From an uncultured Candidatus Saccharibacteria bacterium (GTDB taxonomy: Bacteria > Patescibacteriota > Minisyncoccia > Phycocordibacterales > UBA6899), in the NCBI GenBank assembly GCA_964515375.1, contig CAZERF010000006.1, forward strand, positions 16,133 through 80,132: 64,000 bases of DNA. The letters are read 5' to 3'. The position numbers and the translations under genes are program-made. The notes beneath the pieces are model-generated. The model was not told where the DNA came from, ran no database searches, and saw nothing but the letters and a program-made list of their open reading frames with translations. This document shows, in pieces, positions 2,539 through 59,125 of the stretch; position 1 is the first letter of the stretch; every line of letters starts with the position of its first letter.

Positions 2539-3756
2539 TTGATCATGAAAAGAACTCTTATTACCCTCTTCGCGACCTCGCTCCTTTTCGTCGGAGCGAC
2601 CGCGTCCGCCAATACGGGCACAAACGCGATGACCGTCGAGCAATTGATCGCGCAACTCAAAGCGCAGATCGCAGCACTGACGACTCAGATCGAAACGCTC
2701 AAGGCGGCACAACAAAATGTTTCCACATCAAAACAGTCGGTCAACGAGACTCTCCGGCTCATTGGAGACATGAGGGAAGGAATGACGAGTGAGGAGGTCA
2801 CACTACTTCAGACAACGCTTGCCGGAGACCCGACCCTCTACCCTGAAGGAAAGATCACCGGATACTACGGCGCACTCACCGCCAAGGCGATCAAGCGCTT
2901 CCAGAAGAAATATGGGATTACGGAGACCGGCAAGGTTGACGCAAAGACCCGCGAAGAGCTGAACAAGTTCATCAAGGAAACAGGACTCGCCAAGGAGAAC
3001 GGAAAACTTTGCATTCCTCCGGGACACCTCGTCGCTCCGGGCTGGCTCAAGAAAGAAGCGAAGGAGAAGAAAGGCAAGGGAAACGGAGTCATACAGTGGA
3101 GCAAGGAAGACGTCCTCCTCCCCCTCTGCAATGCGAAGGCGAGCTCGACCCCGACGACAGGAAAAGACACTGTCGCGCCAACGATCTCCACATTCACCAT
3201 CTCCGGATTGACCGCAAATACGGCAGCGATCGCATGGACAACCAACGAACACACCGCGTCGAAGGTCTTTGTGAGCACCGTCTCCCCTGTGGCAACCGCG
3301 ACCGCGGCGTGGACCGACACGACGTACACCCTCGCGCACAACGCGACACTCTCGGGACTTACGGCAAATACGCTCTATTACTTCCTTGTTGAAGCAAAGG
3401 ATGCCGCGGGCAACGTAACGATGAGCACGCAAGGAACTTTCACGACAAGTGCGATCGCTGACACAACCGCCCCGACGATTTCGGCAATGAGCGCGACCGC
3501 GACAGGGTCGACGACGGCAACCATCGCATGGACGACGAACGAAAGCGCGTCGAGCAAGGTCTACTTCGGCACGACGAGCCCGCTTAGCCTCGCGACCGCA
3601 CCCTTCGTCTTCGACGCGACACTGCGCACGACGCATAGCATGAACCTTGTCGGACTCACGACCGGAACCGTGCATTACGTAGTAGTGGAATCAAAAGACG
3701 CCGCAAATAATGCTGCGATCGGAACACCGCTTTCGTTCACAACAACCGCGATCTAA
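2539..3756 (+). CDS. Secreted peptidoglycan-binding (PG_binding_1) protein with two fibronectin type III-like repeats
   Basis: N-terminal signal peptide. PG-binding motif (YPEGKITGYYGALTAKAIKRFQKKYGITETGKVD). Two FN3-like repeats (…LTANTAAIAWTTNEHTASKVF… and …STTATIAWTTNESASSKVYF…). Confidence 0.7.
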   Translation: MIMKRTLITLFATSLLFVGATASANTGTNAMTVEQLIAQLKAQIAALTTQIETLKAAQQNVSTSKQSVNETLRLIGDMREGMTSEEVTLLQTTLAGDPTLYPEGKITGYYGALTAKAIKRFQKKYGITETGKVDAKTREELNKFIKETGLAKENGKLCIPPGHLVAPGWLKKEAKEKKGKGNGVIQWSKEDVLLPLCNAKASSTPTTGKDTVAPTISTFTISGLTANTAAIAWTTNEHTASKVFVSTVSPVATATAAWTDTTYTLAHNATLSGLTANTLYYFLVEAKDAAGNVTMSTQGTFTTSAIADTTAPTISAMSATATGSTTATIAWTTNESASSKVYFGTTSPLSLATAPFVFDATLRTTHSMNLVGLTTGTVHYVVVESKDAANNAAIGTPLSFTTTAI

Positions 3757-3848
3757 AAAGACGTCACAAACATACAGAAAAACACCGCGCCTTCGTGCGG
3801 TGTTTTTCATATCGCAAAGTACACGGCTCTGTAGTAGGATAAAGCGAC

Positions 3849-5105
3849 ATGAGCAACGAGCACAAGAATCATACGGGGTGGGACGTGATCATCGTCGGAG
3901 GAGGTCCTGCGGGGATGATGGCAGCAGGACGAGCCGCGGAGCTCGGGAAGCATGTGCTTCTCCTCGAAAAGAACCCCGGGCTCGGAGCCAAACTCCTCAT
4001 CACCGGAGGTGGTCGCTCGAACATCACCAACAACATGACCGACGTCCGTGCATTTCTCGGGCGTTTCCCCGAAAGTGCGAAGTTCCTTTATTCCCCCTTT
4101 TCACAGTTTGGGGTAACCGAAACACTCGACTTCTTTCATGAGCACGGCATGCCGACCAAGCAAGAAGCCGAGGGGCGCGTCTTCCCCGCTACCGAAAAAG
4201 CGGCAACCGTCCAAGAAACGCTCATTGTGTACATGCGCGAATATGATGTTACTGTGCGCACGAACGCGCGGGTCGAAGGATTTGAGGTCGAAGAGAGCGA
4301 CGTGCGCGGAGTACGCCTTGCCGGAGGAGAGATCTTGCGCGCGCGCTCGTTCGTTCTTGCGACAGGAGGACTCTCGCACCCCGAAACAGGGTCAACCGGA
4401 GACGGATTTCGGTTCATGGAAGCGATCGGATGTCGCGTGCAAAAACAAGGAGCGATCCTCGTCCCCATCCGCACAAAAGAAGTGTGGACACACGCGTTTT
4501 CCGGTATTGCCTTCCCCGAGGCAAAGGTCACCATCACCCGAGACGGCGCAAAACAATATGCACGCGCCGGAAAACTCCTCTTTACGCATTTCGGATTAAG
4601 CGGGCCACTTATCTTGAACATGAGTAAAATGATCGGCGATCTTCTTCCGGAGGGACGCATCACACTCCTTGTCGACCTCTTCCCCTCGCATGACCCCGGA
4701 TCGCTCGACCGCATGATCCGTGACCTTGTTGATTCTTCTCCACGCAAACAGATCGGGAAGATTCTCTCGGAAATACTTCCCCGAGCACTTGCGGAAGCAC
4801 TTCCTGGACAATGCGACCTCAACCCAAACACTCCGGCAAATGAGCTTGGAAAAAGTGAGCGCATGAAACTCGCGCAATTCGCCAAGGCGATTCCGCTCAC
4901 TCCAACCGGACTTCTCGGTGCGAATAATGCGATCGTGACCGCGGGAGGAGTTCCTCTTGCCGACGTAGACACAAGAACAATGTCCTCACGACACTATCCC
5001 AACCTTTTTCTGGTCGGTGATGTTCTCGATGTAAATCGCCCCTCAGGAGGATTTTCTCTTCAACTCTGCTGGACCACCGGCTGGGTCGCCGGAAGTCACG
5101 CATAG
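3849..5105 (+). CDS. HI0933/YhiN-family NAD(FAD)-utilising flavoprotein
   Basis: N-terminal dinucleotide-binding fold IIVGGGPAGMMAAG. Overall length and conservation fit the family. Confidence 0.7.
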   Translation: MSNEHKNHTGWDVIIVGGGPAGMMAAGRAAELGKHVLLLEKNPGLGAKLLITGGGRSNITNNMTDVRAFLGRFPESAKFLYSPFSQFGVTETLDFFHEHGMPTKQEAEGRVFPATEKAATVQETLIVYMREYDVTVRTNARVEGFEVEESDVRGVRLAGGEILRARSFVLATGGLSHPETGSTGDGFRFMEAIGCRVQKQGAILVPIRTKEVWTHAFSGIAFPEAKVTITRDGAKQYARAGKLLFTHFGLSGPLILNMSKMIGDLLPEGRITLLVDLFPSHDPGSLDRMIRDLVDSSPRKQIGKILSEILPRALAEALPGQCDLNPNTPANELGKSERMKLAQFAKAIPLTPTGLLGANNAIVTAGGVPLADVDTRTMSSRHYPNLFLVGDVLDVNRPSGGFSLQLCWTTGWVAGSHA

Positions 5106-5108
5106 CAG

Positions 5109-6437
<1,329 letters not shown>

Positions 6438-56024: not shown

Positions 56025-56717
56025 TCAGTACGCCTTCTGGAGGTACGCCGTCACCGTGCGCCGCTTGAACGCTTTGCCGTCTTTCATGTGTTTGTGCGAA
56101 CGCTCGATCTTGCAGACCTCAAAATAGGGTTCAAAATGCTCGCGGAGTGAACGCTCGGTCCACACATGCTCCGCAACTCCCATTTCGGGATGAATATAAG
56201 TATCCTCCTCCTGCGCGGGACTCTCCTTAAGCAAGCGCTTCACATGAAGATCTTTCTCGGCAAGAAATGATTTGAAGAAAAGCCACCCTTCGGGGCGCAA
56301 CACACGCAACACCTCATCGCGAAGAGTTTCGCGAGCCTTCGCGTCAAGAAAATGCGAGGTCATCATGTCGAGAACGATGGTCACGGACGAGTCGGGAAGA
56401 TCGAGCAATCCTTCGATCGAACGAACGGCATACACGATCGGCAATTCTTTCGAGGCCACTTCCGCCTGCTTTACCGCTTCACTCGAGATATCATACCCTT
56501 CTCCTCGCATGCCATACGTCTTCGCGAGATAAATGAGATTACGCCCGTTACCCGAACCGAGATCAAGCGCCTTCGTTGTGACGTTCAAAAAACGCTTGCC
56601 ATAATTGCGCTCAAGCCAACGGCAGAACTTCTCGAGGTCCTCGGCGGGCTCATCGGACAGACGAAGATGTTTTGCGGTGCGATATTCATTGTTCCAAAAC
56701 TGCTGGTGCTTTGACAT
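56025..56717 (-). CDS. Class I SAM-dependent methyltransferase
   Basis: LDLGSGNGRNLIYLA is motif I. Confidence 0.75.
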   Translation of the reverse strand: MSKHQQFWNNEYRTAKHLRLSDEPAEDLEKFCRWLERNYGKRFLNVTTKALDLGSGNGRNLIYLAKTYGMRGEGYDISSEAVKQAEVASKELPIVYAVRSIEGLLDLPDSSVTIVLDMMTSHFLDAKARETLRDEVLRVLRPEGWLFFKSFLAEKDLHVKRLLKESPAQEEDTYIHPEMGVAEHVWTERSLREHFEPYFEVCKIERSHKHMKDGKAFKRRTVTAYLQKAY

Positions 56718-56765
56718 AAACGCATGATAGCGTGTTTTCCTTTTTCCGCAATGGAGTGAGAGAAA

Positions 56766-56850
56766 CCTTTGGAGCCGTTGCCCGTGGATTCCACCAGGGA
56801 CCTTCTTGTTATGGGTGATCGGCTTCGCAGTGAAAGTGAGACCTTCAAAC
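56766..56850 (-). pseudogene. Degenerate tRNA-Thr-like element. Acceptor and 3' half are as in tRNA-Thr(GGU); the D-arm is deleted.
   Basis: Reverse complement ends …GGUCCCUGGUGGAAUCCACGGGCAACGGCUCCA, matching the 3' end of the tRNA-Thr(GGU) gene at 57922-57997. No D-arm and an unpaired anticodon stem. It shares the flank aaacctttggagcc with the adjacent intact tRNA. Confidence 0.35.
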
Positions 56851-56853
56851 CTT

Positions 56854-56929
56854 TGGAGCCAGAGCCCGGGATTGAACCGGGGACCTTCTCGTTACGAGTG
56901 AGACGCTCTACCAACTGAGCTACTCTGGC
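56854..56929 (-). tRNA. tRNA-Thr (anticodon CGU), with CCA encoded
   Basis: Hand-folded cloverleaf GCCAGAG-UA-GCUC…GAGC-G-UCUCA-CUCGUAA-CGAGA-AGGUC-CCCGG-UUCAAUC-CCGGG-CUCUGGC-U-CCA. Confidence 0.8.
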
Positions 56930-56965
56930 CTATAAACATATATTCAATTACATCTCTCATCTCCC

Positions 56966-57031
56966 GCCTCGTCCCACTCGCAACGAGTGAGCCGGCTGAG
57001 TACTTTTCTTGCCAACTCCGCTACTCTCCCC
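56966..57031 (-). pseudogene. Second degenerate tRNA-Thr-like remnant (D-loop insertion, no T-arm)
   Basis: Reverse complement GGGGAGAGUAGCGGAGUUGG…CUCACUCGUUGCGAGUGGGACGAGG aligns to the 5' two-thirds of tRNA-Thr(CGU), including the anticodon loop. Confidence 0.3.
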
Positions 57032-57149
57032 TACACACAGTACGTATTGGATTTTAAACACCCTCAACATAAGCCGAACGTGACCATTCTATACAAAATT
57101 AAGAAAAATGAAAAGGGGCCCAATGGACCCCTCGGAAACAGGATGGTAA

Positions 57150-57679: not shown

Positions 57680-57921
57680 AAGAAGCCTCCCCACTTGAAA
57701 AATACGATCTCTCCTGATGCTATACCTCGTGATATTTTTTGCAAATATTCGAGCAAACAAAAATGTGACCTTTAAGTTTCAAAAAAAAGAGCCAGGACAA
57801 CGCGGTTTGATTTACACAGAAGAACCTCAAAAAAATGATGGTCCCGTGAATTCTACATGAGAACCCTTGTCTTACTTGGCACGACTTCAGAGTAAAGTAC
57901 GAAAAAATATAAACCAAAAAT

Positions 57922-58109: not shown

Positions 58110-58138
58110 TTGCATAAAATGTTAGATTCGCCTATAAT
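58110..58138 (+). promoter_or_regulatory. Strong sigma70 promoter (TTGCAT, 17-nt spacer, TATAAT) for the tRNA operon
   Basis: Seen in the sequence ~60 nt upstream of the initiator tRNA. Confidence 0.55.
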
Positions 58139-58199
58139 CCCAATATTCTTGTTTGGAAAGACTCATCGCTCAAGCAGAGGGTCCTGAAAACAAACACGA

Positions 58200-58643: not shown

Positions 58644-58717
58644 GCGGTGGTAGCTCAACTGGTTAGAGCACCCGCCTGTCACGTGGGAGGTTGCGGGTTC
58701 GAGTCCCGTCCGCCGCG
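58644..58717 (+). tRNA. tRNA-Asp (anticodon GUC)
   Basis: GCGGUGG-UA-GCUC-AACUGGUUA-GAGC-A-CCCGC-CUGUCAC-GUGGG-AGGUU-GCGGG-UUCGAGU-CCCGU-CCGCCGC-G. Confidence 0.85.
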
Positions 58718-59125
58718 CAAATGCAAAAGCACCCCGAAAGGGGTGGTTTTGTTTGTGCGGTGGAGGAAGCATCTGCATGCTTCCGTGCGGGACGAGAAAA
58801 CCTTGGTGATGTTTTGGCCCTGCAAAACCACCAAGGTGTACCGCTCCAGTAAGGAGAGAGTCCCGTCCGCCGCGCAAATGCAAAAATCCGCTGTTTAGGC
58901 GGATTTTTGTTTGCGTGGCGGAGGAAGTGCCCTGCGGCACTTCCGACGGGACTCGAAAGGGTTTTCGTTATTTATGAGCGCATCGCGCGAATAAATCGAA
59001 AACCACCCGCGGCGGTAGCCGAGAGTCCCCGTATTTTCACCGCGCAAATGCAAAAGCACCCCGAAAGGGGTGATTTTGTTTGTGCGGTGGAGGAAGCATC
59101 TGCATGCTTCCGAAAATAAACGAGG
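58718..59125 (+). repeat. Three tandem tRNA-Asp-derived structured units. Each is: CAAAUGCAAAA spacer, terminator hairpin, acceptor-like GCGGUGG, CUGC-loop hairpin, T-stem with a long inserted hairpin, tRNA-Asp 3' end. The last unit is truncated.
   Basis: Near-identical 74-bp blocks at 58713-58786 and 59039-59112, with a diverged copy at 58873-58946. Exact copies of the tRNA-Asp 3' 17-mer gagtcccgtccgccgcg lie at 58858-58874. Hairpins carry compensatory changes (ggaagcat-ctgc-atgcttcc versus ggaagtgcc-ctgc-ggcacttcc; gcaccccgaaaggggtg versus atccgctgtttaggcggat). Confidence 0.7.

Follow-up and report, generated by a model that had tools for sequence, protein, structure and literature searches.

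We examined a tRNA-Thr locus in a 64,000-nt stretch of DNA (the window) from an uncultured Candidatus Saccharibacteria bacterium of the Patescibacteria (NCBI GenBank assembly GCA_964515375.1, contig CAZERF010000006.1, positions 16,133 to 80,132), where an intact tRNA-Thr(CGU) gene is flanked on both sides by units that resemble it without being tRNAs. All three lie on the minus strand and are described in the order of that strand. Unit U (56941..57031), detected by a shuffle test and by the covariance model R1, is a 5′-half copy of tRNA-Thr(CGU). The tRNA gene itself (56854..56929) encodes its CCA and was called by ARAGORN and by the Rfam tRNA model at 65.9 bits. Unit D (56766..56853), delineated from repeats, a shuffle test, and an alignment to the related genome L083, is an internally deleted remnant of TDE-b, one copy of a trailer element (TDE) of about 178 nt. 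A gene for an S-adenosylmethionine (SAM)-dependent methyltransferase (56025..56717, minus strand; Pfam Methyltransf_11/25) lies directly downstream, and a class A penicillin-binding-protein (PBP) gene comes next. An independent metagenome contig from the Joint Genome Institute (JGI), L167, is essentially identical to the window over 58155-56680, including U, the tRNA, and D, and the arrangement is therefore not an assembly artefact.

To assess homology, each unit was aligned locally to every tRNA of the window and the scores were compared with those of 2000 dinucleotide shuffles. Unit D (56850-56766) scored 51 against tRNA-Thr(GGU) (z 16.4) and 45 against tRNA-Thr(CGU) (z 13.9), with 0/2000 shuffles as high in either comparison, and its similarity to the Gln, Met, and Asp tRNAs of the window stayed at background. 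The tRNA-Thr(GGU) gene in question (57997-57922, minus strand; ARAGORN and Rfam) has the same acceptor 3′ strand as unit D. Unit U (57031-56966) scored 28 against tRNA-Thr(CGU) (z 6.2, 1/2000 shuffles as high), its sole match among the window tRNAs. This alignment runs through the acceptor 5′ strand and TAGC..AGTTGG of the D-loop region, then a 13-nt insertion, then CTCACTCGT..CGAG of the anticodon arm, and the T arm is absent. The repeat finder recovered the same relations between units and tRNA (families D3, D6, D10, and D14), with repeat pairs in the window at spacings of 101, 89, and 84. In family D6, the plus-strand start AAACCTTTGGAGCC is common to D and the tRNA (56763-56784 versus 56847-56868, 86% over 22 nt, spacing 84). 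Tandem Repeats Finder called no array in the window, the copies being too diverged.

The tRNA likeness of the flanking units does not extend to recognition as tRNAs. On a 321-nt slice, U and D gave no Rfam tRNA match even at E<=10 (the gathering score of the model is 29 bits) and none by ARAGORN; only 56929-56854 qualifies as a canonical tRNA or a recognizable tRNA pseudogene. Permissive Rfam searches of the window slice and its relatives returned nothing for U, D, the TDE, or the Asp-, Gln-, and Thr-derived units described below; the matches were tRNAs and one group I intron in a relative's tRNA-Asp, and nothing else. Both flanking units are real in that they are specifically and significantly similar to tRNA-Thr, yet neither scores as a tRNA. 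An earlier sequence-only reading of the locus had proposed an intact Thr(CGU) gene between two degenerate tRNA-Thr-derived units, one of them with an insertion and no T arm and the other sharing its plus-strand start with the tRNA; on each of these points it was borne out, the flanking similarity lying above chance for both units.

Unit U is an old, conserved 5′-half leader element. Model R1, built from U-like sequences, matched the window, L083, L017/L099, L101 (two copies), L115 (two copies), and L104, and these matches occur only directly upstream of tRNA-Thr(CGU). The window match (57030-56941, 81.4 bits, E 9e-19) is partly circular, as the window was in the seed; the L104 match (58.5 bits) came from outside the seed, and L104 is probably the same organism as L115 and so adds no independent support. 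U is present in five lineages of about 20 syntenic relatives having tRNA-Thr(CGU), and the methyltransferases of these five lineages are only 67-74% identical. Every copy contains TAG..AGTTGGCAA, an insert of 12-14 nt, and the hairpin CACTCG-TTR-CGAGTG. In the window, U is built from the acceptor strand, TAGC..AGTTGGCAA, a U-specific insert of about 13 nt, the hairpin CACTCG-TTG-CGAGTG, and a tail that reaches the tRNA leader. The insert and the U-specific substitutions GGCAA, the TTR loop, and CGAGTG are common to all U copies, and the corresponding places in the tRNA itself read GGTAG and CACTCGTAACGAGAAG.

The first seven bases of U follow the resident tRNA-Thr(CGU), being identical to the acceptor strand of the gene in the same genome: L017 and L101 have GCCGCCT, whereas L083 and L115 have GCCAGAG. 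The version in the window is decayed (GGGGAGAG versus GCCAGAG). Gene conversion or unequal crossing-over may have kept the two strands alike, or selection may have done so. In L101 and L115, U forms head-to-tail arrays (period 96, 2.2 copies, 100% matches, and period 94, 98% matches, respectively) whose last partial copy continues into the tRNA, so that the repeat unit is the leader plus the 5′ half. Such constant-period head-to-tail copies, flanks included, identify tandem segmental duplication, and these exact 94-96-nt copies in relatives support the involvement of duplication supposed by the sequence-only reading.

Tandemly duplicated tRNA genes and pseudogenes evolve in concert and undergo unequal crossing-over. 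The locus resembles such clusters in its head-to-tail order, its 94-101-nt period, its one or two U copies, and an acceptor strand that follows the functional gene; it differs from them in that the unit consists of leader plus 5′ half, with a conserved insert of its own and a remodelled anticodon hairpin. A second type of 5′ copy, which combines the downstream Thr gene's acceptor strand with an extended D-arm-like hairpin (ATGCTGTYTTGGYAGATAACAT), sits before Thr(CGU) or Thr(GGU) in some relatives (L101 ~225-300, L093 ~3965-4050, and L086 ~3975-4050).

Unit D became interpretable through L083, the closest relative with upstream DNA (96% protein identity of the methyltransferase), in which a full TDE of about 178-188 nt lies behind each Thr gene. 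TDE-a, behind Thr(GGU), ends in ...GGGCAACGGCTCCA plus a terminator, and TDE-b, behind Thr(CGU), is 94.5% identical to TDE-a. A full TDE comprises a D-arm-like start, a conserved core of about 110 nt that is not tRNA-like and contains the hairpin GTCCGC-CACC-GCGGAC in L083, and a 3′ part that corresponds to tRNA-Thr from the anticodon loop through CCA. The window matches the L083 TDEs over no more than their last 61-63 nt, at 92-95% identity (60/63 nt for the D stump against TDE-a). In the global alignment, what the window retains of TDE-b is ~20 nt at the start and 63 nt at the end, with about 90 nt between them missing. The two parts of D are the trailer with the TDE start (56853-56834) and a 63-nt 3′ stump (56830-56768) that carries CTGCGAAGCCGATCACC, a degenerate anticodon side, an altered T hairpin GGTGGAATCCAC, and a GGU-type acceptor 3′ strand plus CCA. 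D is thus the stump of a TDE of about 178 nt that has lost its middle, and nearly the whole of the sister copy has gone as well: downstream of tRNA-Thr(GGU), a weak relic of the TDE-a 3′ end (taagacaagggttctcatgtagaattcacgggacca, 57838..57875, minus strand) is recognizable by L083 synteny only and was not significant on its own in shuffle tests.

The covariance model R2, built for the TDE core and run over 160+ loci, matched L083 (two copies) and L017/L099 only, with no match in the window and no distant members. Because R2 has no match here and only the stump and the start are left, D is a TDE remnant and not a full member, and in this genome it is most likely a relic being lost. The core in L017/L099 is 75% identical and shows compensatory changes in 9/42 predicted pairs, its hairpin reading GTCGCC-CACC-GGCGAC. 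The distance from the gene to the start of the partial tRNA copy is exactly 137 nt in both L083 and L017, and in L017 this 3′ copy is a perfect 55-nt repeat.

This origin changes how the tRNA-like parts of D are read. Its last 37 nt, ...AGAAGGTCCCTGGTGGAATCCACGGGCAACGGCTCCA, agree with the 3′ end of Thr(GGU), with GGGCAACGGCTCCA identical, and the stretch TCACCCATAACAAGAAGG is nearer to the CGU gene than to the GGU gene; D is accordingly a mosaic of a CGU-like anticodon side and a GGU-type acceptor 3′ strand, and both L083 copies have the same make-up. The sequence-only reading had taken D for a chimera with the 3′ half of Thr(GGU) that lacked the whole D arm. The GGU-type acceptor end and the mosaic character stand, whereas the CGU-like anticodon side shows that D is not simply a GGU 3′ half, and the supposed loss of a D arm gives way to the ~90-nt internal deletion of a TDE seen in the L083 alignment. 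The apparent 5′ acceptor strand GCCGAT also belongs elsewhere: it lies within the conserved motif CTGCGAARMCGATC, and in neither L001 nor L017 does it show covariation with the 3′ strand. The fold of D is no stronger than that of its shuffles (z +0.83). Two further candidates were rejected: the TDE motif CCGCAAAGCC as a c-di-GMP-I riboswitch, for which Rfam gave no match, and the tandem units as TIGR arrays (PMC12045711), for which Rfam gave no match and the repeat period differs.

Comparison at the strain level revealed exchange at the locus. The methyltransferase and PBP genes of L001/L002 are 99% identical to those of the window, while their unit D is only 87% identical, has a CGU-type acceptor, and is followed by about 20 extra nt. 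L167, conversely, is ~100% identical through the tRNA region (U, tRNA, D) and about 10% diverged inside the methyltransferase gene (56717-56680). These opposing patterns indicate that recombination has made the locus a mosaic, in which D has at least three haplotypes. We had considered that D was decaying unusually fast, given its 87% identity to the otherwise 99%-identical L001, and withdrew this idea when L167 showed the mosaic. The haplotypes seen so far partly establish that the D acceptor strand is GGU- or CGU-type according to haplotype, for which exchange among the Thr genes and their copies may be the cause.

The best-known way in which partial tRNA genes arise is through integrating elements (van der Gulik et al. 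2023, PMC9897764), and the two units could in principle be attL/attR-type duplications left by integrative elements that targeted tRNA-Thr and were since almost wholly deleted. As in the fragments attributed to integration, the copies here are partial, non-functional, strain-variable, and placed beside an intact gene, and the 3′ copy covers the tRNA from its anticodon region onwards to the 3′ end; for the TDE it extends from the anticodon-loop/D-stem region, up to the perfect repeat of L017. The near-identity to a terminal tRNA segment (z 13.9/16.4 for D; the 55-nt copy of L017) and the differing small genes that the slots Thr(GGU)-Thr(CGU) and Thr(CGU)-methyltransferase hold among genomes are also in keeping with such an origin. 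However, merely 0-137 nt separate gene and copy: D abuts the tRNA in the window, and the 137-nt spacer of L083 and L017 contains no open reading frame (ORF) and is itself conserved with compensatory changes between the two. No integrase was seen near the units, a Pfam search of six neighbouring ORFs found no recombinase, and gene insertions behind tRNA-Thr(CGU) have no tRNA copy at the far end in any of the syntenic relatives checked apart from L017 and L083. Moreover, integrases normally duplicate the 3′ part of a tRNA, and although D and the TDE are 3′ segments, U is a 5′ segment with its leader, arranged in an exact head-to-tail array and keeping copy-specific features across genera. We therefore regard attachment-site remnants as an improbable source of the units.

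The upstream unit keeps 5′-half elements only and the downstream unit 3′-half elements only, as would be expected of working half-tRNAs, in which U and the 3′ part of the TDE or D would pair with each other or with the pre-tRNA. The resulting tRNA-like complex would then be cut by RNase P or RNase Z, or the halves would be joined as in split tRNA genes. It has been described that tRNase Z cleavage of a 3′-half-like target can be directed by 5′-half-tRNA guides (PMC2691602), and U and the TDE of L017 have complementary acceptor strands. The same strands are mismatched in L083 (GCCAGAG vs CAACGGC) and in the window, however; the intact tRNA-Thr(CGU) gene stands between the two units, the extra complementarity between the U tail and the TDE amounts to 6 nt only (by eye), and L101 and L115 have U without a TDE. 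Joint action of the halves is accordingly very improbable, and a split tRNA gene was rejected given the intact isoacceptor gene and that same short complementarity. Split tRNA genes, with 5′ and 3′ halves encoded separately, are found in Nanoarchaeum equitans. The locus shares with them the separate 5′-half-like and 3′-half-like pieces, but here an intact isoacceptor lies between the pieces, no long GC-rich complementary leader and trailer are present, and the acceptor strands are mismatched in two genomes. YrlA/Y RNA (PMC4201824) and tmRNA are also RNAs derived from or mimicking part of a tRNA; unlike them, U and D have no Rfam match, no tmRNA call, and no closed acceptor/T-arm domain.

We then evaluated constraint against a neutral baseline, the 4-fold degenerate sites of the methyltransferase gene, which are 65% identical between the window and L083 (n = 103). 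Between the same two genomes, the U core is identical at 56/63 positions (P 1.5e-5) and the D stump at 60/63 (P 1e-8). The parts that could not have been copied from a tRNA exceeded the baseline as well, with 26/29 identical positions in the U-specific parts (P 0.003) and 17/17 in the first 17 nt of the D stump, which are not tRNA-like (P 7e-4), and the neighbouring spacer was about 57% identical or unalignable. Since the conservation of U and the D stump exceeds that of neutral sites, U and intact TDEs could plausibly have a role in cis within the pre-tRNA transcript.

The main competing explanation at this point is that U and D are pure debris, that is, neutral and functionless tRNA pseudogene fragments left by tandem duplication and deletion, whose tRNA likeness is refreshed by gene conversion only. 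Such debris would account for the facts that neither unit is a tRNA, that neither folds significantly and U shows no covariation, that their distribution is patchy, and that the window no longer has most of either TDE copy and carries a mutated U acceptor strand. It does not readily account for the U-specific insert and substitutions, which are not copyable from the tRNA and are nevertheless common to five lineages with methyltransferases as diverged as those above, nor for the conservation of the U-specific parts and of the non-tRNA part of the D stump beyond that of 4-fold sites. Streamlined genomes of ~1 Mb are, in addition, expected to purge junk. We consider debris an unlikely explanation, albeit one that deserves serious consideration.

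With respect to transcription, a consensus scan placed a promoter-like site, TTTTCA-17-TAGAAT (57086..57114, minus strand), upstream of unit U. Its context ttaattttgtatagaatggtcacgttcg is identical in L083 despite the 65% identity at neutral sites; in both genomes the promoter-like site precedes U and falls within an identical 28-nt block. The terminator of the preceding small ORF (57133-57113, minus strand) lies just upstream of it. The terminator scan found no terminator-like site between the tRNA or D and the methyltransferase gene, and in L115 no promoter-like or terminator-like site was found by consensus scan between Thr(GGU), U, and Thr(CGU). From these scans, U most likely lies in the transcribed leader or spacer of tRNA-Thr(CGU). 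The synteny from tRNA-Thr(CGU) to the methyltransferase gene is kept in many relatives, and the closest methyltransferase matches are metagenome-assembled genomes labelled Paceibacterota or Lloydbacteria. In L009 (1304-1306) and L004 (5975-6001), tRNA-Thr(CGU) abuts the methyltransferase start codon with gaps of 1 nt and 25 nt, respectively, which suggests a tRNA-mRNA co-transcript in which the 5′ end of the mRNA is produced by tRNA 3′ processing.

On balance, we favour local duplication, deletion, and exchange, with the units retained in the tRNA-Thr(CGU) transcription unit as leader and trailer, as the probable overall account of the locus. The origin through local duplication plus recombination is well supported: the exact arrays of the relatives, together with the shared trailer repeat, demonstrate head-to-tail duplication, and the L083 alignment demonstrates deletion, while exchange is suggested by the mosaic acceptor types, the tracking of its tRNA by U, and the strain-level mosaics. 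U arose when the segment from approximately -45 to +50 of the tRNA gene was duplicated head to tail; the copy gained 12-14 nt between its D loop and its anticodon stem, its anticodon arm became a 6-bp triloop hairpin through substitutions, and the element has persisted in at least five lineages. U and D would be transcribed as leader and trailer of a pre-tRNA-Thr(CGU)/methyltransferase transcript, and neither would yield a tRNA. We tentatively suggest that U, and the TDE stump in other lineages, are probably under constraint and may act in cis on the processing, folding, or stability of this transcript.

Several points weigh against retention for a function. The excess conservation derives from one genome pair at a recombinogenic locus, whose divergence time is possibly shorter than that of the methyltransferase gene, and the conservation of tRNA-identical positions is explained by conversion from tRNA genes. 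U is missing from about 3/4 of the syntenic relatives with tRNA-Thr(CGU); with this patchiness, and with the TDE core present in two lineages only and deleted here, neither element is essential. Structural support for U is also lacking: it shows no compensatory base-pair changes (0/13 predicted pairs), its fold is not unusual compared with shuffles (z -0.83 for the window; the L083 U has z -2.1), and its acceptor strand is mutated in this genome. Finally, the proposed co-transcription derives solely from consensus promoter and terminator scans.

We further extended the comparison to other tRNA genes. In these relatives, tRNA genes commonly have partial copies of themselves alongside; a flank-similarity census over 154 tRNAs is confounded by neighbouring tRNA genes and is used here as a lead only. 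Upstream of initiator tRNA-Met, relatives often carry one or two units of U-like design between the canonical promoter and the gene, composed of an acceptor 5′ strand, a D arm, and a remodelled anticodon hairpin, without a T arm. Behind tRNA-Asp, a Met-like tRNA, tRNA-Gln, and tRNA-Thr, the units instead consist of an acceptor stem matching that of the neighbouring tRNA, one hairpin, and an extended T stem enclosing a module, and these trailer units usually carry their own terminator. A recurring family of tRNA-derived elements, as anticipated by the sequence-only reading, therefore occurs across related Patescibacteria at Thr, initiator Met, Asp, Gln, and Met-like tRNAs. In the literature searches, no description of these elements was found.

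The window carries examples on its opposite strand, where ARAGORN called two tRNA-Met genes and a tRNA-Asp gene from 58200 onwards. Behind tRNA-Asp (58644-58718, plus strand), about 2 kb from D, positions 58719-59112 contain two complete and one partial Asp-derived units, each with the tRNA's trailer, and the two complete units also have the tRNA-Asp terminator. The complete units (58756-58878 and 58914-59048) fold strongly (z -6.1 and -5.4, 0/200 shuffles folding as well) into an acceptor stem, a GGAAGC hairpin, and an extended T stem closing a three-way junction. One module found in such units is termed type I here, with the signature ..AAGGTGTAC.G-stem-TGTAAG-stem, which also occurs outside a tRNA scaffold and shows compensatory changes in 10/13 predicted pairs over 14 copies. 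Within the T loop of tRNA-derived units, its layout is CGMAAGA - helix - hairpin - helix - (G)TGTAC.G - 4-5-bp stem with a TGTAA loop, and it was located in the window (58793-58860) and in L007, L008, L011, L014, L016, L048, L073, L077, L087, L090, and L098. None of these tRNA-linked elements, the type I module included, matches an Rfam family. When viral contigs were scanned for the exact type I signature, four matches were obtained that appear to be coding, lack the helix, and lie on contigs without tRNA genes, and these were set aside as chance.

The sequence-only reading had seen in D a mirror of these Asp units, and D could accordingly be a reduced member of the same structured class (acceptor stem, hairpin, and T stem with module). 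The likeness is superficial: D has a 5-bp acceptor-like pairing, GCCG/CGGC, and a T-like hairpin. A genuine Thr(CGU)-derived unit of the class does exist in L084, and an Asp-derived unit of L017 shares the motif CTGCGAWRACGATC. Nevertheless, D lacks a GGAAGC-type hairpin, the T-loop module, and its own terminator, its acceptor-like pairing is not retained in L001 or L017, and its present shape is the product of the internal deletion of a TDE. The fold energies separate the two as well, with z -4.8 to -6.4 for true top-half units (Asp, Thr in L084, and Gln) against +0.83 for D and -0.83 for U, neither of which groups with them. Membership of D in this class is thus hardly credible.

As a type of feature, tRNA-derived fragments beside tRNA genes are known in kind, and the interest of this locus comes mainly from its conserved clade-wide context and not from two decayed units. 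Partial tRNA genes are usually dismissed as mobile-element scars; here, the upstream copy has conserved features of its own in five lineages and follows its tRNA's acceptor, and sibling elements at other tRNAs in the clade are strongly structured with compensatory base changes. Functional tRNA spacer RNAs exist, the 3′ETS-leuZ sponge being an example; this RNA and the tRNase Z guides mentioned above serve only as analogies for what a constrained leader, trailer, or tRNA half could do. A broader possibility, which we put forward tentatively and do not hold to be the likelier case, is that Patescibacteria keep an undescribed class of tRNA-half or top-half mimic RNAs beside their cognate tRNA genes, with 5′ halves in the leader (U and the similar units before the initiator tRNA) and structured acceptor/T-stem units with modules in the trailer. 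These RNAs would evolve together with the adjacent tRNA and influence how it is matured, quality-controlled, or regulated. Such RNAs might serve, for example, as pseudo-substrates of RNase P or RNase Z or as folding competitors, with U as a conserved member and D as a decaying one. If the elements are functional, these tiny streamlined genomes would be spending sequence on tRNA mimics placed in cis, a sign that a major group of uncultured bacteria processes or controls its tRNAs through a further, unknown layer. Should they lack a function, the locus still shows how duplication, deletion, and gene conversion reshape tRNA clusters, and it calls for caution in tRNA annotation of metagenome-assembled genomes.

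Other features of the region were also noted. The initiator tRNA-Met of the window is preceded by a canonical promoter, TTGCAT-17-TATAAT (58110-58138), and a 61-nt leader (58110-58199 in all, plus strand), in which ACTCATCGCTCAAG (~58161-58174) resembles, by eye, the remodelled anticodon hairpin of the initiator 5′-half units in L086, L084, L003, L007, L100, and L115. The tRNA-Asp gene of L008 is interrupted by an intron (3625-3939, minus strand) that matched the Rfam group I intron model at 47.4 bits (E 3e-9), just below the gathering score. Similar interruptions were seen by eye in tRNA-Asp of L014 (~3300-3420) and in tRNA-Thr(GGU) of L008 (~5200-5530), L011 (~2400-2530), and L093 (~3780-3905); the window's own tRNA genes are uninterrupted.

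Between the two Thr genes of the window lie two small ORFs on the minus strand (57679-57458 and 57362-57150), each followed by a terminator-like hairpin. The first encodes 73 aa, hydrophobic by eye, and the second 70 aa, cysteine-rich by eye. Pfam gave no family for the longer ORFs that contain them, and a database look-up of the 70-aa product returned no record. The region with both small ORFs aligns to L083 with few gaps, and in other relatives the slot between the two Thr genes is either closed, with the tRNA genes adjacent, or occupied by other small genes.

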